Part shown: positions 1,381 through 58,561 of the stretch, piece after piece | How the letters are laid out: each line of letters opens with the position of its first letter | Numbering within the stretch: the first letter of the stretch is position 1 | NCBI RefSeq assembly: GCF_004010195.1 | Contig: NC_057752.1 | Span: 10,333,737-10,397,736, forward strand | Source of the DNA: Chiloscyllium plagiosum | Lineage: Eukaryota | Length of the DNA stretch: 64,000 nt | Reading direction: 5' to 3' | The notes under the pieces: generated by a model | Told to the model about the DNA's origin: nothing | Databases searched by the model: none | The model's input: the letters and a program-made list of their open reading frames with translations, nothing else | Position numbers and translations under genes: made by a program

Positions 1381-1813
1381 TTATGCTGAAGCAGGTAGCT
1401 TCATTACCGTCTCAGTAATGTATCAACAAATGTCCAGTTTTCACTCCAGGGTTTGGGCGTGCCTTAGAGTCAAGTCCACCTGCCCTGGGAGCAGAGCGTA
1501 GGATGCCCTAAGGCAAGTGATGTCAAGGCAGGTTGATTAGGAGGCTCACCTTAATTATCTGGGACATTTTTATTTGATTCATGGCTGGGTCAGCATTTAT
1601 TTCCGATCTCGTTGCACTTGAGCTGCCTTCTTGAAGCACTGCAATCCATTTGCTGTAGATAGATCCACAATGCTGTCAGGGATCCAGGATTTTGGCCCAG
1701 TGTCAGTGAAAGAATGGTGATATACCTGTATTTCCAAGTCAAGATGATGAGTGGCTCGGATTGGGAACTCTCAGGTGGTGATGTTCCCATCTACTGCCTT
1801 TATTCTTTTAGAT

Positions 1814-2083
1814 CATAGAATCCCTACAGTGTGGAAGCAGGCCATTTGGCTGATCGTGTCCATGCTGGCTCTCCGAAGAGCATCTCACTCAGGCCAACCT
1901 CCTTACCCTATCCCTGTAACCCTGCATATGACATGGCCAATCAACCTGATTTGCACATCTTTGGACTGTGGGAGGAAACCCACGCAGATACAGGAAGAAT
2001 GTGCAAACACTACACAGATCGTTGGCCGAGGGTCCCTGGCACTGTGAGGCAGCACTGCGAACCACTGAGCCACTGCATCACCC
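1814..2083 (-). mobile_element. HE1-type V-SINE nested in LINE
   Basis: tRNA-like head GTGGCTCAGTGGTTCGCAGTGC, core CCCACAGTCCAAAGATGTGC, HER1-type tail CCACACTGTAGGGATTCTATG. Confidence 0.88.
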
Positions 2084-2629
2084 TTTGATGGTAGTGGTTC
2101 CAGGTTTGGAAAGTGCTGTCTAAGGAACTTTAAGCATCTCCAGTGCATCTTGCAGCTAGCACACAGCACTGCTACTGAGCATTAGTGGAGGAGGGAGTGG
2201 ATGTTTGTGGATGTAGTGCCAATTAAGCGGGCTGGTTTGTCCTAGATGCCTTCAAGCTTCTTGAGTGTTTTTGGCTGTTACGTGTTCCAAGTTATTTGCT
2301 GAAGGATTTCTAGCCTCTGACCTGCTTTTGTAGCCACAGTATTTATACGACTTGCCTGTTCAGTTTTTGGTCAATGGTAACAGTGGAGCATTCAGCTATG
2401 ATAGTGCCATTGATTTTGAATCATGGCTGGATTCTCTCTGAATGGAAATGGTCATTGCCTTGCATTTGTGTGACACAAATGTTACCTGTCAGTTTAGAGA
2501 CCAAGCCTGGATAGCATCCAGGTATTGCTGCATTTGGACATGAATTGCTTCAGTAACACGAATATCCCACTTCTGACCTTATGATGGAGGGAAGGTTATT
2601 GATGATGCAGCTGAAGATGAAGGACGCTA

Positions 2630-4525
2630 ACTTGATTTGATTTATTACTGTCACATGTACCTTGGTACAGTGAAAAGTTTTGTTTTGTATACAGCATAGG
2701 CAGATCATACCATACAAAGTGCATTAGGGGAATAGAACAGAGCAAAGAATACATCATTACGGTTGCAGAAAAGGTATACAAAGAGCAAGATCAACATTAA
2801 ATTTAAAACTGACAGATTCATTCAGAAGTCTGACAACAGCGAGGAAGAAGCTGTTCTTGAATCCATTCGTACATGCACACATTTATATCTTCTGCCCAAC
2901 AAAAGTGGGTGGAAGAAAGTATAACTAGAGTGGAATGTTGGTTGGTTTCCTGAGGCAGCAGGAAGTATAGATGGAGTCAATAGACGAAAGGTTGGTTTGC
3001 ATGATGGACTGGGCTATGTTAACAACTTTCTGTAGTCTCTTGAGGTCTTGGGAAGAGCAGTTGCCAAATCATGTGTGATACATCCAGATAGAATGCTTTC
3101 TACGTGCATCAATAAGAGTCCTTGTGGACATGCTGAATTTCCTTAGCCTCCTGTGGAAGTCGAGACATTGTTGTTCATTCTTGACCATTGCGTCAACATG
3201 GGGTGAGCCAGGACAGATTTTTGATGATCATCATACCCAGGAACTTGACGCTCTCAACCATCTCCACCTCTGCACCATTGATGCAGACAGGGGCATGCCC
3301 TCAATTCTGCTTCCTGAAGTCAATGAGCAGCTCCTTTGTTTTGTTGACATTGATGGAGAGATTGTTGTTTTTACACCATACCACTAAACATCCTGTATTC
3401 TGCTTTATTGGTGTTTGAGATCCACCCGATGACAGTGGTATTGTCAGCAAACTTGTAAATGGAGTTACAGCTGAATTTGGCCATACAGTCATGAGTGTAT
3501 AATGAGTATAGTAGGGGGCTGAGTATACAGCCTTGTGGGGCACTGGTGTTGAGGATTGTGGTGGAGGAGGTGCTGTTGCCTTTTCTTTCTGATTGCAGTC
3601 TATGGGCCAGAAAGTAGAGGATCCAGTTTGGGGCGGGGGGGGGGGGGGGGGCGTGTGTCAAGACCTAGGTCTTGGAGTTTAGAGATGAGTTTGTTTGGAA
3701 TTATGGTGTTGAAGATGGAACTGTAGTCAATAAACAGGAGCCTAGTATAGGTATCCTTGTTACCCAGATGTTCCAGGGATGAGGGTAGGGCCAGGGAGAT
3801 GCCATCTGCTGTGGATCTGTTGCACCGCTAGGTGAATTGCAAAGGGTCAAGACAATTTGGCAGGTTGGAGTTGATGTGAGCCATGACTAACCTCTCGAAG
3901 CATTTCATAACTACGGAGGTCAGAGCCACTGAGCGGTAGTCATTGAGACGATTTTTCTTTGGCACCAGGATGCTAGCCGTCTTCTTGAAGCAGATGGGGA
4001 CTTCAGATCATAATAATGAGAGGTTCAAGATGTCTGCGTATATTCCTGCCAGCTGGCCTGCACAGAATCTGAGCACACTGCCAGGGACTCCATTCGGGCT
4101 GGTTGTCTTCTGTGGGCTCCCTCTCAAGAAGGTCTAACGTCTACAATGGTGACTATGGGTACAGGTGCATCTGAGGCTGTTGGGATAGATGACATTGTTT
4201 CATAGACCTTCTGTTCAAAGCAATTGTAGATTGCATTGAGCTCATAGGATAGGGATGTACTGTTGCCCACGACTCTCTTCGACTTCGCTTTGTAGCCCAT
4301 TATGTTGTGTAAGTCTTGCCACAAGCGACAGGTGTCCGTGTACTTTGTCTGGGTCTCAAGCTTAGTTTGGTATTGCCTCTTGGCATCTCTGATGCCCTTA
4401 CAAAGATCGTACTGAGATCTCCTGTAAACAGCAGGATTGCCCGACTTGTATGCCTCGGAACTGGACTTCAGCAGGGAATGGATATCATGGTTTATCCATG
4501 GTTTCTGGTTGGGGAACATTCAGAG
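2630..4525 (-). mobile_element. 5'-truncated Rex1/Babar-clade LINE nested in the older LINE
   Basis: FPNQKPWIN...[38 protein letters not shown] and NVNKTKELLIDFRK motifs. 3' tail AATAAATCAAATCAA at about 2645-2631. Confidence 0.88.
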
Positions 4526-5967
4526 TAACTTCTTTGGCAACCTGGGAAACTCCTACAGAAATGTTTTGGGCTGATACGGTTGAACTCCAATGATCATAAC
4601 TATTTTCCCTTGTGTTAGATATGACTTCAACCAACTTTTCCCTCTGATTACCATTGACTCGAGTTTTGCTAAAGCTTCTTGAAGCCAAATTTGGTCAAAT
4701 GCAGCCTTGATGTCCAGGGCTGTCACTCTCATCTTTGGAATTTAGCTCTTTTGTCTATGTTTGAGCCAAGGCTGTAATGAGGTCAGGAACTGAGTGGCCC
4801 CAGCAGAACCCATACTGGGCGTCACTGAGCAGGTTATTGCTGAGCAGATGCTGCTTGATAGCACTGTTGGTGACACCTTCGAACAGTTTACTGATGATCG
4901 ACAGTAGACTGATGGGGCAGTAATTGGCCAGGTTGAATTCATCTTGCTTTTTGTGTATGGCACATACCCAGGCAATTTTCCACGTTATGTTGGCTAGATG
5001 CCAGTGTTGAAGCTGAACTGGAACAGCTTGGCTAGGGGAGCTGCATGTTCTGGAACACAAGTCTTCAGTAATATTGCCGGAATGTTTTCAGCGCCCACAG
5101 CTTTTTCACTATCCAGTGTCTCCAACTGTTTCTTGACATCACATGAAGTGAACCGAATTGGCTCAAGATTGGTATCTGTGATGCTGGGGACCACTGGAGA
5201 CTACAAGGTGGATCTCCACTCGGCACTTCTGGCTGAAGATTGTTTCAAATGTTTCTGCCTTATCTTTTATACTGATGTGATTGGCTGCCCCATCACACAA
5301 GATGGGGATATTTGTGGAGTCTCCTCCTCTAGTGAGTTTATTTGCCCACCACCATTCCTGATTGGATGTGGAAGGATTGCTGAGCTTAGGTAAGATCCAT
5401 GGTTGTGGAATTACTTAGCCCTGCCTAAAATTGCTGTTTATTCTGTTAGGCTCACACACAGTCTTGTTTGGTAGCTTCACTGGGTTGACACCTCATCTTT
5501 AGGTGTGCCTGATGCTGCTCCTGACATGCCCTCCTTCACCTTTCATTGAACCAGGGTTCATCCCCACTTGATTTTCATGGTCGAGTGGGGAATATGCTGG
5601 GCCAGATTGTGTTTGAGTATGGTTTTGCTGCTGATGGTCCACAATGTCTCACAGATGCCCAGTCTTGCATTGCTGGATCCATTAAAAGGTTATGCCATGT
5701 TACACAGTGTAAGTGTTGCATACCATCAAAGGAGTTATTCTGAATGTGAAGGTGGGACCTCACCTTCACCAGACTGTGTAGTGGTCAATGATACTATCAC
5801 AGAAAGATGCCTCTGTTACAGGCAGCTTAGTGAGGATGAGGTCAAATATATTTTTTTCCCTTTTGTTGATTCCCTAACCATCTGCTGCAAACCCAGTTCA
5901 GCAGCTATGTCCTTTAGGACTCAACCAGTTTGCTGAAGAGTCGCTTTCGGTGATGAACATTAAAGTC

Positions 5968-6340
5968 ACAGAATCTTGACACTGCAGATAGAGGCTGTCC
6001 GGCCCATCGGGTCTGTACCTTCCCTCCAAACAGCATCCCACCCAGACCTACCACCTCTCCCTCCCCTCTTCCCCATAACTCCGTAATTACCATGGCTAAT
6101 CCGCTTAGCTTACATATCTTTGCACACTACGCAGCAACTTGGCATGTCTAACCAGCTAACCTGGACTACGAGAGGAAACAGGAGCACCCAGAGAAAACCC
6201 ACACAGACATGGGGAGAAAGTGCAAACTACAGACAGTTGTCCAAGGGTGGGATTGAAGCTGGATTCCTGGTGCTGAGAGGCAGCAGTGCTAACCGCTGAG
6301 AGGCAGCAGTGCTAACCACCGAGCCACTATTCTGCCCACC
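5968..6340 (-). mobile_element. HE1-type V-SINE nested in the LINE endonuclease region
   Basis: Same head, core and tail as the other copies. Small 23-nt tandem duplication in the head (gaggcagcagtgctaacc twice). Confidence 0.85.
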
Positions 6341-7901
6341 CAGTCTTCCACTCAGAATATATTCAGTGCCTTTGCCACTCTTTTCTAACTGGTACTGATT
6401 CATCAGCCAAGATGGGTGGGGGCACACGATAATCAGCAGGAGGTTTGAGAGGTCCAGAGTCAACACTAAGTTAAGCTCCCTCCCAACTCTGTAACTGCCA
6501 CCTCTGCTAGATCTGTCCTTGAGATCTATGATCTGGGATCCTACCCAGGTATGGCAATGGTATTGTCTGGGGGGACATCGTGTGCAAAGTATGATTCCAA
6601 GAGTATGATTCTGTCAGGCTGTTGCTTGATTGGTCTGAGACATCTCTCTCAACTTTAACACTAGCTCTCAGATATTGGTAAGGAGAACTTTGCACTGTTG
6701 ACATGTCTGAGATTGAGTTGTTGTTTCCGGTGTGTTGGTCAATGCCAGATGGCCCATTCAGTTTCATTTTTTAAGGCTTTTTACCAGTTGATATAACCAA
6801 GTGTTTCATTTGACCATTTCAGAAGGCATTTAAGAGCCATATTGCTGTGGGTCTGGAGTCATATCTACGTCAGACTAAATAAGGAAAGCAGATTTCCTTT
6901 CCTAAAGGACATCAGTGAACCAGATGGGTTTTTTTTCTGTCAATCAACAATGGCTTCACAGTCATCATTAGACTTTTAATTACAGCTTTTTATTGAATTC
7001 AAATTTCACCACCTTCCATGCATTCACATCTGGATGTCTGGATTACTAGTCCAATGGTAATACCAGTACCCCTTTGCCTCTCTCCAATATTACTACAGCT
7101 CCCCATCGTTTTCAAAATTATTTGGCCCACTAGTCCTCAACGCTACTCACCCTCCATGGCCAATTAAACCCTCCATCCCATCGCCATAGCTACTCACCCT
7201 GTATTCATCATCAGACGCCATCTGGAGATGACAAAAAACTAACAATTTAATGCAGCTCTTATTCCTACATTTTGATAGTGATCAAAAGCTCTCCTTATTA
7301 GATCTCATTTGAAGCTTTGAAACATTTTTATTAAAATAATTCTATTTGAACTCCACATTAAAGATAGCTAATCCTTTAATAGTCTATTTAAACTATGAAC
7401 TCAAAACCTTCTGAGAGATATTTTTCGCTTTTGAAACTCAGCTAAGCATTCAAAACGACAATGATAACCCTTGGGGAAATGTCATCAAAGAGCTACTGAA
7501 AATACACAATGAGCTACTACTTTTTTGTCAAACTTGTGCTTGTCAATCAAAGCAACTCAGCAGTTTTCTTTGTTTCAGTGACAGGAGCATTTAAAAACCT
7601 TCAAATCACGACAGTGGTACAGACCCTTCAAGAGGGTTTGTATCTACTTAATCAATTTGTGACCCTCCAATTGTGGGCTAAGGCCCGTTTTTACCTTTAC
7701 AACAGTCTGTTTGAACTCAGCACTGAGTTCAAATGGCCTTGCTGAGGCTTGGTTTGAATGGGCTTTTCCAGAGAATGACTGCCCATCAGCAATTTGACTT
7801 GGGAATCAACCGCACGAGGAATTCCGCTCGCTGTGCTAACTCCAACGCCGATCGCCTCAAAGAGACAAGCGCGAGCACGTCGAGGGGGAGAGCGACTAGG
7901 C

Positions 7902-7915
7902 TTGCGCATGCGCAA
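7902..7915. promoter_or_regulatory. NRF1-type binding site
   Basis: Perfect 14-bp palindrome TTGCGCATGCGCAA containing the NRF1 consensus TGCGCATGCGCA, ending 46 nt before the ATG. Confidence 0.8.
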
Positions 7916-7961
7916 CATAACACACTGGGTGAGGGTGCGGGAGCTGGTGGCGCGCGCAGTG

Positions 7962-8154
7962 ATGGGTTCGCAGGTTTCAGCTCGAGCTGGTCGGGGCCGC
8001 CTGAGGAAAGAACGGTCTTTGGATGCTGAGAGCAGTGAGGATTTACTGGGCGATGACAGACAGGAGGACATTGCGCGGTTCCCTTATGTAGAGTTTACTG
8101 GCAAGGACAGTGTCACCTGTCCGACCTGCCAAGGCACCGGCCGCATTCCGAAAG
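7962..8154 (+). CDS. TMEM106C: TMEM106C coding exon 1 (cytoplasmic N-terminus, MGSQVS...[25 protein letters not shown])
   Basis: ATG at 7962 in good context (gtgATGg). Encodes the TMEM106 family signature [21 protein letters not shown]. The MGSQ start and short N-terminus match paralog C rather than B or A. Donor AAAG|gtaaca at 8155, phase 1. Confidence 0.95.
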
Positions 8155-8371
8155 GTAACAAACGGCTTGCGCTTTAACAGGCACTGAAGTAGCGTTCGCG
8201 TCTCCTGAACTCCACAGAGCTGCTTTTCAGGGCCTGGAGGATCTGCCCCGCCCCGGGGCAGCTTTGAAACGCAACACGTTCCGTGCCAGAGCATATCCGT
8301 TGTTGTTCCTGGAAGGCGCGTTAACTACATGTGGCAATGCTGCTGATGTTTTTGTTCATCTTTAAAGTGGG

Positions 8372-11610: not shown

Positions 11611-11909
11611 TGAGTCAATAATTTCACTCTTGTTGGATGAGTAGCATCCTCAAGTAACTGAAGAGTGCATGGAATTGGAGCGTGGCTTGTGATGTGCTTT
11701 GCAACTGGTTACATGATGAGACTCTTTGCAGTGGGGTTACTGGGTGAGTAGGTGATGGGATCAAATGTGTTCCCAGGGCTTAGTGCTGAGCCTCCTCACT
11801 TCAGTAATTGTTCTCATGAATTGAGCTGTGTGGTCTAGTTATCCAATAAGATGGAGAGCAGTAACAACAAGGGCAGGAGGATATAGAGGGGACTGATTGT
11901 CGTTTTGGA

Positions 11910-12185
11910 TTTCTTATTTTTGCCTATGGGTAGTTGCCCTTCAATTGAAGGGTAATTCTGTCATTTCAGAGCAGTTAGTCGCTACACTACTATTGGTCTG
12001 GAATTGTATGTAGGCAAGACCCAAGTAAAGATGACTGCTTTTCCTCACTAAAGAATGTTAGTGAACCAAGTGCATTTTTAAATATTCACTGAATTGAATT
12101 TTTGTTTCGCCAGTGGTCATGTTCCCTGAGCACTAGCCTGGGTCTTGGGACTCCAGGTCAGTGATTAGTACCACCACCTTGCCAT
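11910..12185 (-). mobile_element. Short tRNA-headed element (same family as 27160-27500 and the 5' end of the 1570-7085 LINE)
   Basis: Reverse complement contains ggttcactaacattctttagtgaggaaaag...cctacatacaattccagacc and the tail gggcaactacccataggcaaaaataag. Confidence 0.7.
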
Positions 12186-26450: not shown

Positions 26451-27002
26451 GCTCTGCATCTTTGTATAGTTTTTGTTTTGCATTTGGTACCGGTCTTGTT
26501 TTCAAATCTGTAAAATACTTTACTTTTTTTAACCTGAAAACAATAGTTAAATTCTCTATCAGCCAGTGAACATAAGGGTTTCCTGTGATGTCCGTGTTTT
26601 TGTGTGAGCTCTAATCTTGGGCTTCAATTTATCCTGTTAAAATTGAGCCAAAAAAGCACTTCTATGTATCAAATCCTTGTGCTGCTCCAAAGTAATACTT
26701 TGACTGTGCCTCACTCCAAATATGATCTCTTTCCTGATCATGCCAAGCTTACTGAGTATACTTGAATCGGTAATGTTTTGTTTTCTTCAACCCAAGGCAT
26801 CATTCCAGTTTTTCTGGAAGATTCATATCAAGGTTTCTACAGTCTGCTCTGCTAGAGTATCCTCTGCAAACTAAACTATAGATTGCCCATCCCCAAAATA
26901 AATCTCTTTATGGTTGGTTGATAACCTCTTATTTAGAGTATTAAATTTTTTGCAAACAGATGAACTGTAGGTTATTTCCTTCACCCCCTTTGTGTTTTGC
27001 AG

Positions 27003-27066
27003 GGCTGGTCAATGAATTGGTGGCCCTGATCCCATACAGTGACCAGAGGCTGCAGCCGCAAAGAAC
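27003..27066 (+). CDS. TMEM106C: TMEM106C coding exon 2 (GLVNELVALIPYSDQRLQPQRT)
   Basis: Acceptor tgtgttttgcag|, donor AC|gtaagt, 64 nt. Encodes the conserved LVALIPYSDQRL motif. VNELVAL and PQRT are paralog-C-like. Not present in the ORF track. Confidence 0.96.
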
Positions 27067-27159
27067 GTAAGTCTTGAGAGGATTGATTAACTTTTATCGT
27101 TGTCTAGAATTGATCAATCTTGTTTCAACACTAAATATTTACTGTGTCTAACAATTGTG

Positions 27160-27502
27160 TGGGCAGTAGCATGGCTGATATTTCACTGGACTATTAATCC
27201 AGAGCCCTAGCTTAATGTTCTGGGGGCATAGTTTGAATCTCACCATGGCAGATGGTGAAATCTGAGTTTAAATTGCTTTTTTTTTTAAAATACAAACCTA
27301 ATAGCAACTCTTTTCATGTTATAAAGACTGATTTGATCCTCTAATGCTCTATTTTTGGGCAAAGGACACCTGTTATCCTTGCTCTGACCTGTGACTTCAG
27401 ACCCAGAGCAATGTGGTTGACCCCGAGCTGCCCTTCAGCCCATTGGGAATGGGCAATAAATACTGGCCTAGCCAATGGTGCCCATTTCATGTATGAGTGA
27501 AA
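27160..27502 (+). mobile_element. tRNA-headed SINE-like element, copy 1
   Basis: Head cactggactattaatccagag...gtttgaatctcaccatggcagatggtg, body tgacttcagacccagagcaatgtggttgac, tail atgggcaataaatactggcctagcc. Confidence 0.82.
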
Positions 27503-27581
27503 ACCTTTGAACCAATGAATTCCAATGTTATAAATAAAACTGTGGATGCTGCTGCACTTAATGTTGTGATGCTTGAATTTA

Positions 27582-27882
27582 GGGGAGGCAATGATCTAGT
27601 AGCATTATCACTAGACTAATCCAGGAACCAGGTTCAAATTCTGCCATGGCAGTTGGTGGCATTTGAATTTGACCATGAATTTTTAATTTTTTTTTATTTT
27701 TGGGAATCAAATGGGTTTTCCAAACGTACTTTCCTTTTTAAGGAAGGAAACTGCTATCCTTACCTGGTCTGGGATCCATGTGTCTCCAGACCTACCACAA
27801 CATGGTTGACACTTAAACCCTCCTCTGGGTGGTTAAGGGGCAATAAGTGCTGCCTGGCCAGCAAGCCCTCATTCTGTGAATT
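27582..27882 (+). mobile_element. tRNA-headed SINE-like element, copy 2
   Basis: A-box-like tgatctagtag, B-box-like ggttcaaattc, body aggaaggaaactgctatccttacctggtctgg, tail gggcaataagtgctgcctggccagc. Confidence 0.82.
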
Positions 27883-28257
27883 TCTTCTTAAAAGATTCCC
27901 CTTTTTAGTCCTGAAGTGACTAAACTGAAATGGTTAGTATTTTGATTCTCATTTTGCACTCTTAGAAACAACACTAAAGCTTGCAATGGGTGTAGAATGT
28001 GAAATGGTTTTTCAATGAGAACTTGAGCATTGAATGATTCTTCTCTGCAACATTTGATACATGCATCCCGTGACTACAGTTAATGCCATGTCAGGGGTGG
28101 GTATGAATAATGATTAAGTGTAAAACTTTATTCTCAACAGCCCCATGATAGAATGATATCCTCAGGTGCTTTTGGAGACAAAAGTACTGCCTGAGTACAA
28201 GAGAGGTTGAGGCTGAAACTTTGGCTTGGGTCCCCACCAAGAGTTGTGGTGGTGTCT

Positions 28258-29366
28258 GTCAGAGTCAGAGATGTACAGCATGGAAACAGACCCTTCGGTC
28301 CAACCCGTCCATGCCGACCAGATATCTCAACCCAATCCAGTCCCACCTGCCAGCACCTGGCCCATATCCCTCCAAACCCTTCCTCTTCATATACCCATCC
28401 AAATGCCTTTTAAATGTTGCAATTGTACTAGCCTCCACCACATCCTCTGGTAGCACATTCCATACACGTACCACCCTCTGCGTGAAAAGGTTGCCCCTTG
28501 GGTCTCTTTTATATCTTTCCCCTCTCACCCTAAACCTATGTCCTCTAGTTCTGGACTCCCTGACCCCAGGGAAAAGACTTTGTCTATTTATCCTGTCCAT
28601 GCCCCTCAAAATTTTGTAAACCTCTATAAGGTCACCCTTCAGCCTCTGATGCTCCAGGGAAAACAGCACCAGCCTGTTCTGCTCAGATCCTCCAACCTTG
28701 GCAACATCCTTGTAGAGCTTTTCTGAACCCTTTCAAGTTTCACAATATCTTTCTGATAAGAAGGAGACCAGAATTGCCGACAATATTCCAACAGTGGCCT
28801 AACCAATGTCCTGTACAGCCACAACCAGTCCTCCCAACTCCTGTACTCGATACTGACCAATAAAGGAAAGCATACCAAACGCCACTTTCACCATCGTATC
28901 TACCTGCGACTCCACTTTCAAGGAGCTATGAACCTGCACTCCAAGGTCTCTTTGTTCAGCAACACTCACCATTAAGTGTATAAGTCCTGCTAAAATTTGC
29001 TTTCCCAAAAATGCAGCACCTCACATTTGAATTAAACTCCATCTGCCACTTCTCAGCCCATTGGCCCATCTGGTCCAGATCCTGTTGTAATCTGAGGTAA
29101 CCCTCTTCGCTGTCCACTACACCTCCAATTTTGGTGTCATTTGCAAACTTACTAACTGTTCCTCTTATGCTCACATTCAAATCATTTATGTAAATGACGA
29201 AAAGTAGTGGACCCAGCACCGATCCTTGTGGCACTCCACTGGTCACAGGCCTCCAGTCTGAAAAACAACCCTCCCACCACCACCCTCTGTCTTCTACCTT
29301 TTGAGCCAGTTCTGTATCTAAATGATTAGTTCTCCCTGTATTCCATGAGCTCTAACCTTGCTAATC
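28258..29366 (-). mobile_element. Young 5'-truncated HER1-type CR1 LINE
   Basis: [31 protein letters not shown] and RLKGDLIEVYKI motifs. Tail shared with HE1. Confidence 0.93.
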
Positions 29367-29624
29367 TAAAATTTTTGGGGAAATAACTATTTGGTGTTTG
29401 CTGAGGAGCAGCCCTGGTCCTCCTGAGAGGAGTCTTATTCCATCATTGCAACAAGTTAAATCTTTTTGGATTATAACCTTTTTTTCTTTTTAAAAATAAA
29501 TGCTAGTTTAAATTGCATCTAAAGCAAATGTAACCACCATTTGAACAGTCTTCTGCCTGTTCTTTTACTACCTATAAAAGATATAGGAACAGAATTAAAT
29601 CATCCATGTTGTCAAGTCTGTTCC

Positions 29625-31710
29625 AGTGTTTGCAAAAGACACTAACCAGGATTTGAGTTGGGATGGTGAGATTCTGGAACATGTTAAAACCTCCTTAACA
29701 AGTATGAAGGTTCATCAATCCCCAGGGCCAGATGAGATGTATCCCAGGTTGCTATGTAGGAGATATTTAGTATTTCTTTCACTACAAGTGAAGTGTCCGA
29801 TGACTAGAGGGTAACTAATGTGCTTCCTTTCTTCAAGAAGGGCAGCACAGACAGACTAACTGGTCTGTAATTACCCTAACCACTGACATGCCAGGTACTA
29901 TTGGAAAGGTTGTAGATTAATTAGTGCTTGGCTAGGGATTGAACCAGGATAATTGGTGTGTGTTTGTTAGAGGGTGATTCTCCCTAACTAATTGATTTCT
30001 TTTTGAAAAGAAGACTAAATATATTGAAGGGAGTGCAGTTGATATAGTTTACATGAACTTCAGTTAGGTTTTGACAAGGTCCCACATGGAAGGCTGGTCC
30101 AACAGGTAAGAGCCGACTGAGTCTAGGACAGGTTGCCACAGAGTCCAACATTAGCTTGCAAATAGGCAATGAGTGGGTTGTTTTTGTGATTGGAACTCTG
30201 GTACCAGTAGTGTACCAGGGGAATCAGCGCTGGAACCCTTGGTATTATGTATATTAACAATATCGATGTGAAAGTAGTATGTCATAGACGTACAGCATGG
30301 AACCAGATCCTTCAGTCCAACTCTTCCATGCTGACCAGATGTCCTAAATTAACCTAATCTCATTCATCTGCATTTGGCCCATATCCCCTCAACCCTTCCT
30401 ATTCATGTACCCATCGAGATGCCTTTAAGTGTTGTGATTGTACCAGCTTCCACCACTTCCTCTGGCAGTTTGTTCCATGCACTCACCACCCTATGTGAAA
30501 GAGTTACCCCTCAGGGCTGTTTTTTAAATCTTTTCCCTTTACCTTTAAACCTATCTCTCTTGTTCTGGACTCCCCCAACCCAGGAAAAGACCTTGGCTGT
30601 TCACCCTTTCCACACCCCTCATAATTTTATAAACTTCTATAAAGTCAGTCCTCAGTCTCTGACACTCCAGGGAAAATAGTCCCAGCCTATTCAGACTTTC
30701 CCTATAGCTCAAACCCTCCAACCCTGGCAAAATCTTTTGTAAACTTTTTCTGAACCCTTTCAAGTTTTATAACATCCTTCCTATTGCAGGGAGACCAGAA
30801 TTGCATGCAATATTCCAAAAGTGGTCTCTCCAATGTCCTGTACAGCTGCAACATGACCTCACAACTGCTGTACTCACATGCAGTGACCAACAAAGGCAAG
30901 CATACAAAATGCCTTCACTATCCTATCCATCTGGAATGCCACCTTCAAGGAACTATGAATCTGCACTCTAAGGTCTTTGTTCAGGCACACTCCCTGGGAC
31001 CTTACCATTAAGTGTAAAGTTCTGTGATTTGTCTTTCCAACACCTCAATTTACCTAAATTAAATGCCATTTGCTGCCACTCAGTGCATTGACCTATCTGA
31101 TCAAAATCCTGTTGTACTCTGAGGTAACATTCTTTGCTGTCCACTACACGTCCAATTTTGGTGTCCTCTGCAAACTTGCTATACCTCCTATGTTCACATC
31201 CAAATCGTTGATATCAATGACAAAAAGCAATGGACCCAGTACTGATCCTTGTGGTACACCACTGGTCACAGGCCTTCAGTCTGAAAACCAACCCTCCACC
31301 GCCACACTGTCTCCTACCTTCAAACCAGTTCTGTATCCAAATGGCTAGTTCTCTCTGTATTCCCTGTGATCTAACCATGCTAATTTGTCTACCATAAGGA
31401 ACCTTGTAAAATTAGTAAGTTTGCAGGTGAGACAAATTGGTGAGGAGGATGGTCTGAGGCTGCAGTGATATTGACCAGCTGGTAAATTTGAGCAGAACAA
31501 TGGCAGATGGAATCTAATCCTGACAAGTTGGCATTTTGGGAGGTCTAATGAAGGATATACACAATGAATGGTAGGTCCTGAGGGAGTGCTGAGGAACAAA
31601 GGGACTTGTGTACGAGTCCATAGATCCCTGATGGTGTCAGCATAAAGGGTGGTAAAGAAGGCATATGGAATGCTTGTCTTCATTAGTTGGATTACATAAT
31701 AAAGGAGCAA
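29625..31710 (+). mobile_element. Older CR1 LINE split by an antisense HER1 copy
   Basis: SPGPDEMYPRLL and the RT region stop at about 30280 (tcgatgtgaaagtag) and resume at about 31405 (attagtaagtttgcagg). Confidence 0.78.
30281..31404 (-). mobile_element. HER1-type CR1 LINE, 5'-truncated
   Basis: LQLYRTLERPLLEYCMQFWSP and LNRLGLFSLE motifs. Highly similar to 28258-29366. Confidence 0.92.
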
Positions 31711-36173: not shown

Positions 36174-37226
36174 AGAGTCATAGAGATGTACAGCACAAAA
36201 ACAGACCCTTCGGTCCAATCTAGTCCCACCTGCCAGCACCCAGCCCATATCCCTCCAAACCCTCTCCTTTAACTTACTAGAGTCATAGAGATGTACAGCA
36301 CAAAAACAGACCCTTCGGTCCAATCTAGTCCCATTTGCCAGCACCTGGCCCATATCCCTCCAAACCCTTCCTATTCATATACCTATCCAGATGCCTTTTA
36401 ACTGTTGCAATTGTACTAGCCTCCACCACTTCCTCTGGCAGCTCATTCCATACACATTTCACCTTCTGAGTGAAAACGTTGCCCCTTGGGTCTCTTTTAT
36501 ATCTTTCCCCCCTCACCATAAACCTATGCCCTCCAGTTGTGGACTCCCCCACCCCAGGGGGAGTCTATTTATCCTATCCATACCCCTCATGATTTTATGA
36601 ACCTTTTTATAAGGTCACCCCTCAGCCTCTGACGCTCCAGGGAAAACAGCCCCAGCCTTCTCCTTATGACTCAAATCCTCCAACCCTGGCAACATCTTTG
36701 TAAATCTTTTCTGAACCCTTTCAAGTTTCACAACATCTTTCCGATAGGAAGGAGACCAGAATTGCACGCAATATTCCAACAGTGGCCTAACCAATGTCCT
36801 GTACAGCCGCAATATGACCTCCCAACTCCTGTACTCAGTACTCTGACCAATAAAGGAAAGCATACCAAACACCACCTTCACTATCCTATCTACCTGCGAC
36901 TCCACTTTCAAGAAGTTATGAACCTGCACTCCAAGGTCTCCTTGTTCAGCAACACTCCCTAGGACCTTACCATCAAGCATAAAAGTCCTGCTAAGATTTG
37001 CTCTTCTAAAATGCAGCACCTCACGTTTATCTAAATTAAACTCCATCTGCCACTCAGCCCATTGGCCCATCTGATCACGATCACGTTGTAATCGGAGGTA
37101 ACCACCTTCGCTGTCCACTACACCTCCAATTTTGGTGTCATCAGCAAACTTACTAACTGTGTACCTTTTTTATGCTCACATCCAAGTCATTTATATAAAT
37201 GATGAAAAGTAGTGGAACCAGCACTG
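36174..37226 (-). mobile_element. Young HER1-type CR1 LINE with tandemly duplicated 3' end
   Basis: 167-aa RT C-terminal ORF at 36615-37118. A 105-nt repeat unit starts at 36159 and 36264. Confidence 0.93.
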
Positions 37227-37769
37227 TTAATTTTTAATCAACTCAAATGACTGGTTGGCTTATAACCTCCAGTACATGTCAAATTAATATTTTTTCTTCC
37301 TTCCCACTGGAAGATAAATAGTATCATCAGCCAGCATTGATTACTTTTGTTCCATATATTTATTGGTTTACCTTGAAATTAAAGAAATCCTTCCCTTGGA
37401 GAGAAAATATTCCACCACTCATGTTCTGATTCTCAGTAATCAAAACATTTGATGCTTGAGTCATCTTTCCCATTTGGACATATTTCTTTGGAATGTACTT
37501 TTTTTGTACTCTTACAGGTTTTACTACACTTTTTTTTTTCTTTCCTGATTGTTTTTAAACATTTGTTCAGATGTTCCTACTATTTTTGGTCTCCTATTTT
37601 TAATTTCCAGCCATTGGCTTTGGTTTGTCTAGTTTTATTATAACGGAACCATGTTTTCATTACTGCTGTCTTGCGCATGTTCCCTATATCTACTGCCCTC
37701 TGGGTCCAACAGGTTGTTTTTCTCATTCCTCCTAAACAAATTAATGCTTAGCTTCTAACTTTCACTTTC

Positions 37770-38990: not shown

Positions 38991-39282
38991 TGCTGTATTC
39001 CCATTTCATTCTCCACTTTTCTCAAGATTTAAACCACTGATCCCAGTAGTTTATTACTTCATTTGTGGAAAGTGGGACATTGCTGGCTGGGCTAGCGTTT
39101 ATTGCCCACCTCCTGTTCACCCTTTTAAGGTGGTGGTGAGTTGCTGCCTCAAACTGCTGCAATCTACTTTGTCTGTTCACTAATCCTACAAACGTCTGAT
39201 TTATTTCTTGTCTTTCAAATTTAATCACAAAGCTCCAAAAGCAAGCTTGTTCTAAAGTCCTAGAAATGTACAACACTGTAAC

Positions 39283-42200
39283 ACCCTTCGGTCCAACCTG
39301 TCCATGCCAGCCAGATATCCCAATTTAATCTAGTTCCACTTGCCAGCACTTGGTCCACATCCCTCAACCCTTCCTATCCATATACCCATATACATTAAAA
39401 AAAAACTCGGATGTTCGTGAGACATGATTTCCCACACACAAAGCAGTGTTGACTATCCCTAATCAGTCCTTGCCTTTCCAAATATATATACATCCTGTCC
39501 CTCAGGATTCCCTCCAACAACATACCCACCACTGACATCAGGCTCACCGGTCTGTAGTTCCCTGGCTTGTCCTTACCACCTTTCTTACTACCAGATGCCT
39601 TTTTAAATATTGTAATTTTACCAGCTGCCTCCTTTGCCTCTAGCAGCTCATTCCATACACACACAACCCTCTGCATGAAAAAGTTGCCCATTAGGTCCCT
39701 GTTATATCTTGTCCCCCTCACCCTAAACTTATGCCCTGTAGTTCTGACTCCCCCGCCTCAGGGAAAAGACTTTTTGTCTATTTACCCTATCCGTGCCCCT
39801 CATCATTTTATGAACCTTTATAAGGTCACCCCTCAGCCTCTGACACTCCAGGGAAAACAGCCCCAGTCTGTTCAACCTCCCCCTATATAGTTCAAATCCT
39901 TCAACCCTGGAAGCATCCTTGGAAATCTTTTCTGAACCCTCAACTTTCACAATGTCCTTCCGATAAGAAGGAGACCAGAATTGCACGCAATATTCCAACA
40001 ATGGCCTATCCAATGTCCTGGCACCTCATTTATCTAAATTAAACTCCATCTGCCACTTCTCAGTCCATTGGCCCATCTGATCAAGATCCTGTTGTACTGA
40101 GGTAATCACCTTCGCTGTCCACTAAACCTCCAACGTTGGTGTCATCTGCAAACTTACTAACTATACCTCTTATGTTCGCATCCAAATCATTTGTATAAAT
40201 GATAAGTAGTGGACCCAGCACTGATCCTTGTGGCACTCCACTGGTCACAGGTCTCCAGTCTGAAAAACCTCTGTCTTCGACCTTCGAGCCAGTTCTGTAT
40301 CCAAATGGCTAGTTCTCCCTGTATTTCCGTGAGATCTAACCTTGCTAACCACTCTCCAATGGGGACCCTTGTCAAACGCCTTACGAAAGTCCATATAGAT
40401 CACAGCAACCACTCTACCCTCATCAATCCTCTGTTACTTCAAAAAACTCAGTAATGTTCGTGAGACATGATTTCCCACACAAAAAGCAGTATTGACTATC
40501 CCTAATCAGTCCTTGCCTTTCCAAATACATATACATCCTGTCCCTCAGGATTCCCTCCAACAACTTGCCTGACATCAGGCTCACTGGTCTGTAGTTACCT
40601 GGCTTGTCCTTTATCACCTTACTTAAATAGTGGCACCATGTTAGCCAGCCCTCCAGTCTTCCAGCACCTCACCTGTGATTATCGATGATACAAATATCTC
40701 TGTAAGGGGCCCAGCAATCACTTTCCTCAGCTTCCCACAAAGTTTTAGGGTACACCTGATCAGGTCCTGGGGATTTATTCACTTGTATGCGTTCAAGACA
40801 TCCAGCACTTCCTCTGTAATATGGACATTTTGCAAGATCTCACGATCTATTCCCCTACATTTTGTCTCTTCCTTGTCCTTCTCCACAGTAAATGCTGATA
40901 CAAAATATTCATTTAGTATCTTCCCCCATCTCCTGCAGCTCCACACAAAGGCCACCTTGCTGATCTTTGAGGGGTGCTATTCTCTCCCAAGTTACCCTTT
41001 TGTCTTTAATATATTTGTAAAAATCCTTTTGGATTCTCCTTAACTCTATTTGCCAAAGTTATCACATGTCCTCTTTTTGCCCTCCTGATTTCCCTCAAGT
41101 AAATTCCTGCTGCCTATATACTCTGAAGGATTCACTCAATCGCTCCTGTCTTTACCATATGCTTCCTTTTTCTTAACCAAATCTTCAATTTTCCCCAGTC
41201 ATCCAGCATTCTCTATACCTACCAGCCTTACCTTTCACCCTAACAGGAATATGCTGTCTCTGGACGCTCATTATCTCATTTCTGAAGGCTTCCCATTTTC
41301 CAGTTGCCCCCAATCAACTTTTGAAAGTTCTTGCCTAATACCATCAAAATTAGCCTTTCTCCAATTTAGAACTTCAACTTTTAGACCTGGTCTATCCTTT
41401 TCCATCGCTATTTTAAATCTAATAGAATTATGGTCGCTGGCCCCAAAGTGCTCCCCCCCTGCCCCTGACACCTCAGTCACCTGTCTTGCCTTATTTCCCA
41501 AGAGTAGGTTAAGTTTTGCACCTTCTCTAGTAGGTACATCCACATACTGACACAAATTTTCTTGTGTACACTTAACAAATTCCTCTCCATCTAAACCCTT
41601 AATACTATGGCAGTCCCAGTCGATGTTTGTTTGGAAAGTTAAAATCCCCTACCATAACCACCCTATTATTCTTACAGATAACTGAGATCTCCTTAAAGTC
41701 TATGTCTCAATTTCCTGCTGACTATTAGGGGGTCTATAATACAATCCCAATAAGGTGATCATCCCTTTTCTTATTTCTCAGTTCCACCCAAATAACTTCC
41801 CAGAATGTATTTCTGGGAACATCCTCCCTCAGTACAGCTGTAATGCTATCCCTTATCAAAAATGCCACTCCCCCTCATCTCCTCCCTCCCTTTCTATCCT
41901 TCCTGTAGCATTTGTATCCTGGAACATTAAGCTGCCAGTCCTGCCCATCCCTGAGCCATGTTTCTGTAATTGCCATGATATCCCAGTCCCATGTTCCTAA
42001 CCATGCCCGGAGTTCATCTGCCTTCCCTGTTAGGTCTCTTGCATTGAAATAAAAGCAGTTTAATTTATCTGTCCGATATTGTTTTCTGCTCTGTCCCTGA
42101 CTGACTCGCTTCTGTTCTCAACTGTAACAGTCTCTGATCTCTCCTCACTATCTCCCTGGATCCAAACCCCCACCATACTAGCTTAAGTCCTCCTGAGCAG

Positions 42201-50340: not shown

Positions 50341-51169
50341 GTAAGTAAAATTTTCTACTTTTTTGAAATCTGCTGGCATTTAGGTCATTCTATGCAAGTA
50401 TATTATGATTTTATTCAATAAATGTCTGTTATCTGTACTATGACTACATGGCAAAGGTCTCCATACCATTAATTTGAAAATACTAAACTTCTATTCAACG
50501 TAAATAACTAAACAAATACTGTCATCCTCAGTGGCATTGATCAGAACTTCACTGGACTAGACTTTAAATATTAGGCTGCAGAAGTAGGCCAGAGGCTGGC
50601 AATTCTGTAGTGAGTAGCTTGCCTCTAAACCTGCACACCCCCCAACTGTGGGCAAGCTTTGATCTCAGGAGTGAGAAGAATCTATGCTTGCCTGGCTGAG
50701 TGCAGCTCCAAGGAAACCACACCCCATCAAGGCTTAGAACTAAACTTGTTAATAAGGTCATGTGTTCATCCTTGTTTTATTGCTCAGATCTCCAATTTAA
50801 AATTGAAGCACTGGGGGTAGCTTGGAAAGTTTATTTAGAGAATTAATTTTCTCTCATTGTGCATTGTTTTTGGTAAAATGAAATTAAATTGACTTGTCCC
50901 CTGGTACTTTCACATGTTGGAAATGTGAATTTGTGGTGTGATGGCACCTAAAATTTGAGGGACTGGGTTTTTAGTGCAACTTGGTAATTGGCTACTGTTT
51001 AATGCTGTAGACGTATTGCCAAAATTTGTGCTATTGGTTTTTGGCTATTTCCTTTTAATCCCAACTTTTTTGAGTTGGTTGGGATGAAATGAAAGCTGTC
51101 GTTTTTTTTTTTGTCTGAGGATAGTTTTTTTTGAGCTTCTAGGTTTTTGTTCAGGAAATTGTGGTTGGA

Positions 51170-51810
51170 GCAGATGAGGCCTACATTTGTTGCCTATCCC
51201 TGATTCTCCCTTGAAGATAGTGGTGAGCTGCTGCCTTGAACAATTCCCATTCTTGCAGTGTAAGGGCACCCACTATGTTAGGGAGGGAATTCCTAAGATT
51301 TCGACAGACAAAACTCTATTTCATTGAAGACGGTGAGTGACTTGAAGAACTTGCAGTGTAGTGTTCCCATATATTTATTGCCCGTGCCTTTCTGGGTGGC
51401 AAAGAATGCAGGTTTGCACAGTACTGTCTGAGGAGCCTTGGTGACATGTGCAGGGTATTTTGCAGATAGTGCTGCTGGTGAATGGCACCCCAAATCAGCA
51501 AACTACTTTTGTCCTAGATAGTGTCAGTCTTGGTTTTTTTTTGAGTTACACTCCAGGCAAGGGGGAAGTATTCCATCACCCCATTGACTTGTGACTTTAT
51601 AAATGGGGAGATGGTGAGTATCATGCCACAGAATCCTAGCCTCTGACCTGCTCTTGTAGCCACAGTATTTGTAGTCCAGTTCCATTTCTTGTCAGTGATT
51701 GCCCCACTAACAGCATCCTGGGGTTATCAGCAATTGCAATGACATTAAATGTCAAGGTGTGATGGTTGGATTACCTCCCATTTTTGTCTGGTACTTGCAT
51801 GTTGCAACTG
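51170..51810 (-). mobile_element. 3' fragment of the same LINE family as 1570-7085
   Basis: Colinear with 1585-2490 (gagctgctgccttgaa, tagcctctgacctgctcttgtagccacagtattt). A shorter tail copy lies at about 39070-39165. Confidence 0.8.
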
Positions 51811-53039
51811 TTACTTACAAACATGGGTCTTACGATTAGCATTTAACTCTCGGTGAAACTCTAACCTCCTTGTAACTCTTGTTACACAAGACACAAAGAT
51901 GGTGTTCTGGACAGAGGAAATCGAGAGAAATAGTTGCGTTGTCTTTGCTCACGGGCTCTGAATGGTTTCTGTGCTGATCAGAATTCCACTGCTTAGTCTT
52001 TGGTTTCTTGTTTGCAGTGTCACAAGGTGGTTGGTTCACACTCCTTCTGAAAGGCTGTGACTTAAGTCCACAGCTTATGGCAACTGCCAAGTAGGGGGAA
52101 AACACTGGTTTTCTTCAGGCTTAAAGTAACTTTTTATTGCAGAGATGCGTACTGATATGCCATGGGGGCATTGAGCTAAATCACCTTCCCTCTCCCTGTA
52201 TTCGCAACACAGTAAAGTCAAAATATTCTCGAACCCTTCAGTTGTCCTGATGGTTCCTAACCAGACTTTACAAAAGTTAGCAGACTGATTTTATAGTTGA
52301 GCAAAAACTAATATAATACTAACTTTAGCAGAGCTAAACTAAACAACAATATCTAATGTCTAAATACTTTAAACCCAGTCTCAAATAGAAATATGGTACG
52401 AATGGGGCCATTCAGCCCATCTTGTCTATGCCAACCCAAGTTGGGTTTTAAACATAGCCTCGCTCTCTTGCAAACAGACAGTTAAAGAATAAAAAGGAAA
52501 ATAACAAGGTGTCACAGGCATATGAGATTGACTAATGTCTTCAGAAATCAAGCTAGATACAATGCAAATTGCTTCGAGTAGGCTCCTGAGGAATACTCAT
52601 TTCACTTAATCCTTATAACTGGAATTTTATTCTCAATTTTTGACAGGATCATAATGGGAGAGCAACTAACTCATTTCAGCAGCTTTCACAGCCACAACCA
52701 TCTCTTTAAAAACAGTTCAAAGTTCAGTTTCTCTCCCACCATTTTGAGTGGCTGGCAGTGGCTGTGGCCTTCCTGTGGCCCCTTTTAACATCCAAGCATC
52801 TGCCAACCTTGGAGCATAATGCATCTCCAGACTTGATGTCTGATTTATGTTCAAAATCATTGTCATCTCCAATTAACTTCCAAGGCCAGGTCCCTTCTAA
52901 ATGAATCATTTTTTATATAAAGCTGCTCACAGTCCAGATGTCACCTTCAATTCACACTTCCAACTAAAAATGCAAAATAAAAATAATGAAGGCCTTGACT
53001 GCATTCCTGGGGATAGGTAGAACCTCCAATACATAAAGG

Positions 53040-53640
53040 ATCAGACTGGCCCAATTGCTGCAGAATGCTCCAAGTAGTTGAACCATTCCATGTCACCTGT
53101 CTTTGTGGGGAAGTTTGTAATGGAAAAAATCACCTTTTTGACCACCAGTCCATCAGAAGTGGTCAGCACGTAGCATCCTCCAGACCCTATTGCGGTTTTT
53201 TTGTCACTGAGCTGCTCAGGACAAACCTTGACACAGGACTGTCCTCTATGATCTGTTCCCTGGTATGCACGCTGAGACAAGCATCCAACTGTGCCTGGAG
53301 GGCCATCGGTTTGATGAAAGACACTCTTTGGTCTGCTTGAAACTTGCTGGCCTTTCAGAGCAAGGAGTTAACCCTGACTGGATGTTGCAGACTTGCACAT
53401 TCTAAGGTGCAATGGGAAAGACCACTCTGAGGCCTTCCTGCTGAAGGTAAATGGGGGTCCATTTAGTTACTGGAGCCTAGTGGTGGTGCTCAGGCCTGTA
53501 AATACAGTCTGGCCCAAGACATGTCTTTGGTTTGTTTAGATAGAGTCAAATGTTTGTTTCCTTTTAACATGCTACTGTATAAACTGAACTGTTTGTGACT
53601 GTATATAAGAGCTAATGAATAAGTTGTTTTATATTTTGAA
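53040..53640 (+). mobile_element. Tx1/L1-like LINE ORF2 C-terminal fragment
   Basis: LY.LFPG.H.ET...NCAWRAIGLMKDTLWSA...CCRLAHSK-like remnant followed by an AT-rich 3' UTR. Confidence 0.6.
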
Positions 53641-58151: not shown

Positions 58152-58279
58152 AAATACAATGCACTGTAAGTGAAATTTCCCTGGTCTGGTCTGAAATCAT
58201 GACACTGACAGCATGGAAAATCCTCCAGCTGGATGAGATGGGTCAACTTTGTCTATCTATTGTTGATTTATCAATTGTA

Positions 58280-58482
58280 ACCAGTTGGCTGGATTATTGG
58301 CTTAGAGTAGTGTAATGCCAACACTATGTTCAGTTCCCGTCACCAGTTTGAGGTTCCCATGAAGGCCACTCCTCAACCTCTCCCCTTGCCTGAGGTCTGG
58401 TGGCCCTCAGGTTAAATCCCCGCCAGTCGCTTCTCTGTAATGAGGAAGCAGCCCATATGGTCTAGTAAGTCAATGGCGACAA
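58280..58482 (+). mobile_element. SINE-like repeat
   Basis: tRNA-like start and homology to 11427-11610 (opposite strand). Confidence 0.65.
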
Positions 58483-58561
58483 ACAATTAGTGTCCCCTTC
58501 TATGCTGAGAACCTGAGGAGGCAACGATGGACCATCCGTTCAGCATTTTTAGACTCTCTTA

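Follow-up and report, generated by a model that had tools for sequence, protein, structure and literature searches.

A tRNA-like head at the 5' end of Zenon LINEs of sharks and rays, traced from a decayed copy in Chiloscyllium plagiosum

Why should a coding LINE begin like a SINE? The question is raised by a minus-strand locus in a window of 64,000 nt of Chiloscyllium plagiosum DNA (GCF_004010195.1, NC_057752.1, 10,333,737-10,397,736; all coordinates below are relative to this window). The initial annotation described there a compact LINE of about 3 kb, without room for ORF1, whose 5' end resembles the short elements at 27160, 27582 and 11910. Overall this observation is confirmed. The 5' sequence that was quoted lies at 7085-6840 on the minus strand, and removal of the inserts 6341-5968, 4540-2632 and 2085-1810 leaves 2,962 nt, colinear with shark proteins from the linker into the reverse transcriptase (RT). 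Following the initial annotation, we take the outer two inserts to be HE1-type SINEs; the middle one is presumably a Rex1-type LINE. The parts of the locus and its relatives in the window are as follows.

7010-7085, minus: decayed tRNA-derived head (sequence; by-eye comparison with the Table S2 consensuses), with A-box remnant 7079-7069, anticodon-type arm 7054-7038 and B-box remnant 7030-7020; the extra arm of this copy has lost about 20-25 nt
6822-7009, minus: 5' UTR body common to the short elements; a profile built from the three short copies matches 7079-6822 at E 1e-21
6692-6821, minus: remaining, LINE-specific 5' UTR together with what is presumably a basic N-terminus (by-eye colinearity with HypSab_Zenon-1)
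6342-6691, minus: 5' part of the endonuclease (APE), starting at KVLLTNI, with stops and frameshifts (junction also in HypSab_Zenon-1 and SquAca_Zenon-3; no Pfam match here)
5968-6341, minus: presumed HE1-type SINE inside APE (GACT at both ends; A+B box score 16.9)
4541-5967, minus: 3' part of APE, linker and 5' part of RT of the Zenon ORF (tblastn, Pfam RVT_1)
2632-4540, minus: 5'-truncated LINE, presumably Rex1-type, inside RT (Pfam RVT_1 E 4e-9; junctions located)
2086-2631, minus: 3' part of RT and C-terminal region (shark protein and nhmmer comparison)
1810-2085, minus: second presumed HE1-type SINE insert
1565-1809, minus: end of the ORF and 3' tail (about 1620-1565), closing in a short A-rich stretch
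27161-27497, plus: bipartite short element, whose head has both an A and a B box and is followed by the body and a Zenon 3' tail (27443-27495)
27583-27884, plus: short element, head and body; tail alike pairwise, no match to the LINE-tail profile
11907-12185, minus: short element, more decayed; B box lost, tail unrecognisable
51141-53737, minus: second Zenon copy, 5'-truncated and interrupted (pieces 53737-53641 and 51817-51141; nhmmer E 4e-12, 3e-16 and 4e-4)
39053-39164, minus: lone Zenon 3' end (end of the ORF and tail)

To judge from its sequence, 7085-1565 without the inserts is a nearly complete but decayed member of the elasmobranch Zenon family of LINEs (CR1 group). Pfam RVT_1 matches its RT (E 1e-4 and 2e-6), the region 4541-5967 gives 56-77% identity on in-frame pieces in tblastn against P0016, P0017, P0018 and P0001, and the best-matching named proteins are those of sharks and rays. 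By eye, and over the first 400 nt of each consensus, 84 of 97 nt of the 5' UTR (about 6935-6839) are identical to CarCar_Zenon-1 and the junction into KVLLTNI is the same as in HypSab_Zenon-1. This DNA colinearity with a published consensus is also how the 5' endonuclease part (6691-6342) is recognised by eye, since in the decayed frames Pfam gives no endonuclease match and our own profile was likewise blank on 6691-6342; the endonuclease motifs beyond the HE1-type insert do match that profile (E 2e-4). The published elasmobranch Zenons (CarCar, RhiTyp, ScyCan and HypSab_Zenon-1; SquAca_Zenon-1/2/3; Stuart et al. 2026, PMC13343379) belong to the same family, measure about 3.3 kb, lack ORF1 and have an A-rich tail; our copy differs from them only by its decay and its three inserts. 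It is dead: the B box is lost and the frame is broken by stops, frameshifts and the three inserts. No target-site duplication was found around it, and its 3' end is only a short A-rich stretch (about 1582-1568).

There is indeed no room for ORF1 here, because KVLLTNI (6691-6671) begins 394 nt from the 5' end, and Pfam found no ORF1, including the esterase type canonical for CR1/L2, in three frames of 7085-6345. This much of the initial annotation stands, but it describes something ordinary. The position of the APE motif, the Pfam RT match and the length of 2,962 nt give the single APE-RT frame of a Zenon, and every Zenon is reported to lack ORF1, as are many L2 and Rex1 elements (PMC13343379), so that we reject its absence as a novelty.

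The head is a different matter. We compared by eye the first 400 nt of each Zenon consensus in Table S2 of the same paper (PMC13343379). The head opens all seven elasmobranch consensuses, which come from five species and are not independent, as they share ancestry, and none of the three from hagfish and coelacanth. In all seven the boxes sit exactly at the 5' end in tRNA geometry, within a decayed cloverleaf. The A box has the consensus form TRGCNNAGTGG, and it is read in all seven; there is an anticodon-type arm as well, and an intact B box is found in six. The six B-box 10-mers occur six times in the supplement text (first 400 nt per row), always in an elasmobranch Zenon, and no further Table S2 row has any of them in that span. 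The acceptor stem is unpaired and the T stem imperfect, while two hairpins are retained, the second of which differs in sequence between Squalus and other sharks and still pairs (all by eye).

Whole Zenon copies exist, since for the consensuses that are 3,288 and 3,293 nt long the longest single insertion listed measures 3,299 nt; the copies tallied number 2,313 in white shark and 1,419 in whale shark (Table S3, PMC13343379). The 7085 locus is a genomic head-APE junction in its own right. The initial annotation had allowed that this junction might occur only here, as a chance SINE insertion beside a truncated LINE; its presence in all seven consensuses from five species leads us to reject that. 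Since the non-elasmobranch Zenons lack the head, its distribution among the consensuses indicates that it was gained in the shark/ray line.

How tRNA-like is it? At the level of the family, and in the short copies at 27160 and 27582, A and B boxes stand at tRNA-like spacing at the 5' end; in the 7085 copy they do not. With scoring matrices learned outside the arm motif and a background of 5110 blocks, the A+B score of 27160 was matched by 14 blocks and that of 27582 by 18 (top 0.4%). That of the 7085 copy was matched by 1172, and because its B box is lost, tRNA-likeness cannot be demonstrated from this copy alone. Matches to the arm motif in viral contigs were tRNA anticodon arms in 82 of 120 cases, and the motif is found in tRNAs of many isotypes. 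Rfam reported no tRNA in the window copies (four stretches, among them an HE1 control that was likewise missed), ARAGORN none in the decayed head copies, and the heads fold no better than shuffles (z-scores -1.3 to +1.5). The head-body motif had no matches in viral, metagenome and GTDB contigs, collections so poor in shark DNA that these blanks are uninformative.

The homology of the head to the three short elements is far above chance. With nhmmer the LINE head matches 27579-27820 (E 2e-11), 27175-27463 (E 5e-11) and 12079-11956 (E 3e-7), in each of the three pairwise comparisons all 500 shuffles scored lower, and the short-copy profile agrees. At 27160 the tail is LINE-derived too: the LINE-tail profile matches it at E 6.5e-5, against a best E of 1.3 in the reversed-window control. 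Pairwise tests of the whole tail are weak (the score was equalled or exceeded by 15, 271 and 26 shuffles in 500), and for 27582 and 11910 the tail match is significant neither by shuffles nor by profile. The look-alikes thus appear to share the 3' tail of the LINE as well, clearly so for 27160, which would make them bipartite head-plus-tail derivatives. The remark that the LINE copy lacks their tail is therefore misleading, as the tail is found at the LINE's own 3' end, and an unrelated SINE lending its head does not suit an element such as 27160 with both ends from the LINE. What survives of the initial interpretation is an autonomous-type APE-RT LINE with a family-wide tRNA-derived 5' head shared with short elements; the oddity of ORF1 and the foreign lender do not. 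The Zenon head has no resemblance to the HE1-type copies of the window, in which short copies outnumber headed LINEs 3:1.

Taken jointly, we regard it as almost certain that the locus is a Zenon, that full-length elements in sharks and a ray normally start with the tRNA-derived head, which is absent from the hagfish and coelacanth consensuses, and that short copies, clearly in the case of 27160, join the first 270 nt of the element to roughly its last 55 nt.

What might such a head do? We infer, giving the idea an even chance, that it is an internal Pol III promoter for the 3.3-kb RNA. If so, TFIIIC would bind the A and B boxes, and Pol III would synthesise the 3.3-kb RNA and stop at a flanking T run. 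Since Pol III terminates at T runs, the sense strand would in this way be purged of T4+ terminators. The uncapped RNA would be translated through a non-standard start, and the protein would copy it by target-primed reverse transcription from the conserved tail. As the promoter would be internal, every full-length copy would carry it, and an internal deletion would at once yield a transcribable, mobilisable SINE-like element. The scenario in full is that elasmobranch Zenon is an autonomous coding LINE, transcribed end to end by Pol III from a captured tRNA promoter, translated uncapped with no in-frame AUG, maintained in this form from before the shark/ray split and spawning SINEs by plain internal deletion. 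As a reading of sequences we consider it possible, with the balance somewhat against it.

Counts of T runs on the sense strand bear on this proposal. Over 3,727 nt of Zenon we count 3 runs of T4+, whereas 6,595 nt of other LINE stretches hold 23 (P 0.005); T5+ runs number 0 and 9 in the same two sets (P 0.018). The other LINE stretches, among which are homologous CR1 pieces, cannot be treated as independent. The scarcity spans the coding part, beyond the shared 270 nt, and in the first 400 nt T4 is absent from all seven shark/ray consensuses and present in the three others (by eye). Against its own shuffles the scarcity in our copy is weak (P 0.03 mononucleotide, 0.09 dinucleotide), and under neutral codon choice no more than about 2.3-2.8 T4 per kb would be expected. 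T4 is also low in Rex1 (2.1 per kb, no T5) and in L001 (1.7 per kb), which counts against purging as a sign of Pol III. L001 itself, the one distant locus among 114 candidates of a protein-based metagenome scan, also speaks for the promoter reading, as a headless relative that has an in-frame ATG, shows 4 T4 runs over 2,403 nt and lacks an exact A or B box in its upstream sequence. The T5+ runs within 27160 (2) and 27582 (4) would halt Pol III, and this counts against the promoter reading.

Other explanations can be offered. The head may be real and family-wide while the full-length RNA comes from Pol II, through the 5' UTR or host read-through; the boxes would then be at most a TFIIIC-bound insulator or enhancer, or would owe their persistence to exchange with the short elements, which are abundant and would be the sole users of Pol III. 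In the accessible text of PMC10886601 and PMC5786205, LINEs are as a rule transcribed by Pol II, and the RNAs made by Pol III are short; Kojima (PMC10886601) puts elements confined by Pol III processivity at about 100-1,300 bp and leaves autonomous ones to Pol II. A capped RNA is also easier to translate, and the T-run signal is modest. We nevertheless find this somewhat unlikely, as boxes exactly 5'-terminal in tRNA geometry in all seven consensuses, within a decayed cloverleaf, form the pattern of a SINE head, and T4/T5 are scarce across the coding part and not just in the shared 270 nt.

The head might instead act as RNA, its tRNA-like fold setting the 5' end by an RNase P-like cleavage, in the role that HDV-like ribozymes have in R2, RTE and Ingi, or recruiting ribosomes to an ORF without an in-frame AUG. 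Self-cleaving 5' ribozymes do occur on other ORF1-poor LINE clades (PMC5786205, accessible text), the two hairpins are kept, with pairing in the second preserved despite the Squalus difference, and by eye the sole nearby ATG (6767-6765 in our copy) is out of frame with the APE motif both here and in HypSab_Zenon-1. An unpaired acceptor stem and an imperfect T stem argue against a substrate for RNase P, however, and the best-preserved letters are those of the DNA promoter boxes, so we rate this as improbable. Least credible, indeed very improbable, is that the head lies outside the active LINE, the consensuses having been extended into a commoner SINE through a shared piece of 5' UTR and the 7085 locus being a chance insertion or one-off recombinant. 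The 3:1 excess of short copies in the window and the partly automated pipeline behind the consensuses would allow it, but our locus follows the consensuses colinearly across the junction, uninterrupted by a SINE tail or a duplication, the same junction stands in five species, and single insertions of consensus length are listed (Table S3).

The head may mean an unusual mode of transcription for Zenon. The working rule is that LINEs use Pol II and SINEs Pol III, and a successful vertebrate LINE with a conserved tRNA promoter would break it. If true, the family would offer a natural experiment on the length that a Pol III RNA can reach and on how well it can be translated, and would open a direct path to the birth of SINEs. 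For annotation, head-bearing fragments may belong to either kind of element. Should the head only ride along on a Pol II transcript, it is no more than a curiosity for repeat curation.

What seems to be new is a tRNA-like promoter head, of a kind otherwise usual on small non-coding repeats alone, on a coding LINE of a known shark/ray family, seemingly unremarked. The family and its consensus are already published; the head sits in those data undescribed (the main text of PMC13343379 has "tRNA" 0 times and "SINE" once, its preprint "tRNA" 0 and "promoter" 0). A search of mostly openly accessible papers found no autonomous LINE with a tRNA head. The precedent suggested among Ingi/Vingi is rejected: as far as the accessible text of the sources goes, tRNA heads are described on non-autonomous SINEs derived from Vingi/RTE, and none on autonomous Ingi/Vingi LINEs.

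We know other elements that share parts of this plan. Bov-tA, SINE2-1_ACar and WALLSI2, from RTE/Vingi, likewise join a tRNA head, a piece of LINE 5' UTR and a LINE 3' tail, but in the accessible text of PMC5786205 the head is only on the non-autonomous element and the contributors are only RTE/Vingi, whereas the shark head is on an autonomous LINE of the CR1 group. The SINEs that use a Zenon 3' tail, ZenoSINE of Heliconiini (PMC6685494) and the bivalve SINEs mobilised by CR1-Zenon (PMC11481361), share the tail only, with no head reported on the partner LINE. HE1/HER1 and SacSINE1 of sharks (PMC3747384, PMC5499810) are tRNA-headed SINEs with CR1-group partners; SacSINE1 is described as having a Deu domain and an L2 tail (PMC5499810). 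The TRIMp3 elements Helenus, Ajax and Cassandra also have a Pol III promoter derived from a small RNA in a retroelement that is not a classic SINE, but are, in the accessible text of PMC10886601, non-coding, non-autonomous LTR elements no longer than about 1.3 kb. In the Persaeus SIDE/Zenon pair of Lepidoptera (PMC6740152), a short element of about 270-390 bp is likewise built from both ends, 5' and 3', of its Zenon LINE. Persaeus has no homology to tRNA, 5S or 7SL and no Pol III promoter, whereas in the shark the short element and the LINE are both tRNA-headed; with their A and B boxes, 27160 and 27582 depart from the SIDE description on that point, and they fit the descriptions of SINE and SIDE at once.

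The minus-strand element at 7085-1565, hereafter the 7085 copy, agrees in sequence with its description in the initial annotation. By our reading of the junctions it is interrupted by three inserts, presumably HE1 and Rex1, the names used in that annotation.

6341-5968, HE1-type insert, GACT at both ends
4540-2632, Rex1-type insert (RVT_1, E 4e-9)
2085-1810, HE1-type insert

Without these, 2,962 nt remain. They are colinear with shark and ray proteins (named matches: Heptranchias, Mobula, Pristiophorus and Heterodontus), with 56-77% on in-frame pieces, and stops and frameshifts are numerous in the coding part. The endonuclease motif KVLLTNI starts 394 nt from the 5' end; the 5' part of the endonuclease is too decayed to be matched by Pfam or by a purpose-built profile. 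The homology proposed between this 5' end and the short elements at 27582, 27160 and 11910 is borne out: the first 270 nt match them, in this order, at E 2e-11, 5e-11 and 3e-7, and the pairwise scores are reached by none of 500 shuffles.

Stuart et al. 2026 (PMC13343379), in the portion of text and supplements available to us, recovered Zenon LINEs from five elasmobranchs, coelacanth and hagfish. Their Table S2 contains seven elasmobranch Zenon consensuses of 2,886-3,314 nt; over the first 400 nt of each, which our comparisons cover, all seven start with the head, so that the head-endonuclease junction extends beyond a single locus. Within that length HypSab_Zenon-1 and SquAca_Zenon-3 reach the same endonuclease motif as the 7085 copy, and about 6935-6839 is identical to CarCar_Zenon-1 at 84 of 97 letters, counted by eye. 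For two consensuses, 3,288 and 3,293 nt long, the single insertions given in Table S3 reach 3,299 nt. Thus the 7085 copy is, as judged by sequence comparison, an elasmobranch Zenon with about 90% of its full length in the window, the junction is the normal structure of that family, and absence of ORF1 is expected. The absence of ORF1 noted earlier stands, given where the motif lies, but it is not unusual: every Zenon is described in that paper as lacking ORF1 and having a poly-A tail. The feature is real and the family already known; its elasmobranch members, per the same source, had not been deposited in a repeat repository.

What does the head consist of? All seven elasmobranch consensuses, inspected by eye, carry an A box, TRGCNNAGTGG in form, about 5-10 nt from the start. 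Near position 27 lies a stem of 5 bp whose loop reads CT-NNN-AA; it is intact or nearly so in six and partly deleted in SquAca_Zenon-2. After this arm come a second hairpin, which in HypSab_Zenon-1 is shortened, and then a B box. Six B-box 10-mers, searched as text in the first 400 nt of consensuses from a paper listing 1,003 elements, occur six times, in elasmobranch Zenons only. Neither of the two hagfish Zenons nor the coelacanth one shows such a head within its first 400 nt, and none was seen in L001, a distant relative with an in-frame ATG about 24 codons upstream of its endonuclease motif.

Among the matches listed for the arm motif in viral contigs, 82 of 120 lie, by raw count, inside an ARAGORN tRNA; the isotypes are mixed. 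Matrices for the A and B boxes, trained on 77 of these tRNAs with the selected arm excluded, place 27160 among the best 14 of 5,110 blocks and 27582 among the best 18, near HE1-type heads; 11910 and the 7085 copy, both having lost the B box, rank 316 and 1,172. None of the window copies gives a tRNA hit with Rfam, which misses the HE1 control as well, and folding shows no advantage of the decayed heads over shuffles.

The head may be a promoter, and we give about even chances to Pol III transcription of the LINE from it. In favour, five species retain the boxes precisely at the 5' end although the cloverleaf has decayed, and T runs are scarce. On the sense strand, runs of four or more T number 3 in 3,727 nt of Zenon versus 23 in 6,595 nt of other LINE stretches (P 0.005), and runs of five or more 0 versus 9 (P 0.018). 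By eye, T4 occurs in the available 5' ends of none of the seven elasmobranch consensuses versus all three other Zenons. Against this, the deficit in the 7085 copy reaches only P 0.03-0.09 relative to its own shuffles, neutral codon choice predicts just 2.3-2.8 T4 per kb, T4 is also low in Rex1 and L001, the stretches compared are in part homologous, T5+ runs occur in two of the short copies, and the accessible text of PMC10886601 regards Pol III elements as short. Pol II may instead transcribe the LINE, the head being a passenger or bound by TFIIIC; we consider this rather unlikely. It is less likely still that the head acts at the RNA level. Here the second hairpin, which separates the anticodon arm from the B box (Table S2; window 27203-27227), deserves mention: by eye its Squalus form resembles a duplicate of that arm, and in other sharks the letters differ and the pairing is kept, which suggests selection on RNA structure. 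An artefactual head on the LINE, at odds with its recurrence beyond this locus, seems very improbable.

Under any of these models, translation deserves a comment. The sole nearby ATG, at 6767, does not share the reading frame of the endonuclease, either in the 7085 copy or, by eye, in HypSab_Zenon-1. An ATG stands at this place (6767-6671, minus) in six of the seven consensus starts, out of frame wherever it and the motif are both visible, and upstream of the motif the frame of the endonuclease stays open, with a basic product. Translation by a non-AUG start or by frameshift is possible.

The window also holds the following.

39164-39053, minus, lone Zenon 3' end or fragment
9174-9122, minus, and 56630-56680, plus, lone Zenon 3' ends or fragments with weaker tails (E 2e-5 and 8e-3 for the pair)
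50532-50660, plus, Zenon 3' end or fragment (E 2e-5)
28261-31411, 36320-37243, 39262-42200 and 57037-59539, younger CR1-type LINE copies, 74-87% alike, some in inverted pairs
300-1400, older CR1-like piece
about 14713, 17612, 24572, 47809, 55385 and 61789, short unclassified repeat family
8028-8153 and 27002-27067, plus, TMEM106-family host gene (Pfam TMEM106_N, E 2e-15 and 1e-9)

The GC-rich first-exon region of this gene (about 7800-8300) lies about 750 nt from the Zenon head and is oppositely oriented, and the three short elements appear to lie within its introns. Zenon coding pieces also occur inside six annotated shark host proteins (P0017, P0019, P0021, P0024, P0026 and P0029; aldo-keto reductase, anoctamin-7, GPR139 and ROS-like), probably through gene-prediction errors or exonisation.

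A LINE-tail profile trained solely on three 3' ends (1660-1565, 51250-51140 and 39165-39045) matches 27443-27495 at E 6.5e-5 (best control E 1.3). Hence the best-kept short copy, 27160, by its sequence joins the opening 270 nt of the LINE to its final 55 nt. The profile matches neither 27582 nor 11910; a pairwise alignment of 40 nt (score 35) links 27582 to the tail at 39053, and whole-tail shuffle tests are weak for all three. Two of the short elements lie in the same orientation about 85 nt apart (27160-27885), and in both, T-rich runs take the place of the A-rich run that follows the head in the LINE. The arrangement allows two histories: in one, the LINE acquired the head and the short forms are later deletions; in the other, a bipartite SINE came first and the head returned to the LINE via the shared UTR.

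The surprising part is a conserved tRNA-type putative promoter on an autonomous LINE. We found no such LINE in the accessible text of PMC5499810, PMC6685494, PMC7245038, PMC4494074, PMC3747384, PMC11481361, PMC13295347 and the Zenon preprint 10.64898/2026.01.13.699120, and the shark short element is likewise undescribed there; "unremarked" holds for the head within this literature. A whale shark preprint (10.1101/443036) names CR1-Zenon-like LINEs, and "tRNA" occurs 0 times in its available text. As far as the accessible text of Kojima 2018 (PMC5786205) goes, a tRNA head joined to a LINE 5' piece and LINE tail is described only on non-autonomous elements, from RTE and Vingi. Persaeus, a Zenon-derived SIDE of Lepidoptera, has the same layout as the best-kept shark short copy but, unlike it, is without any Pol III promoter in the description available (PMC6740152).
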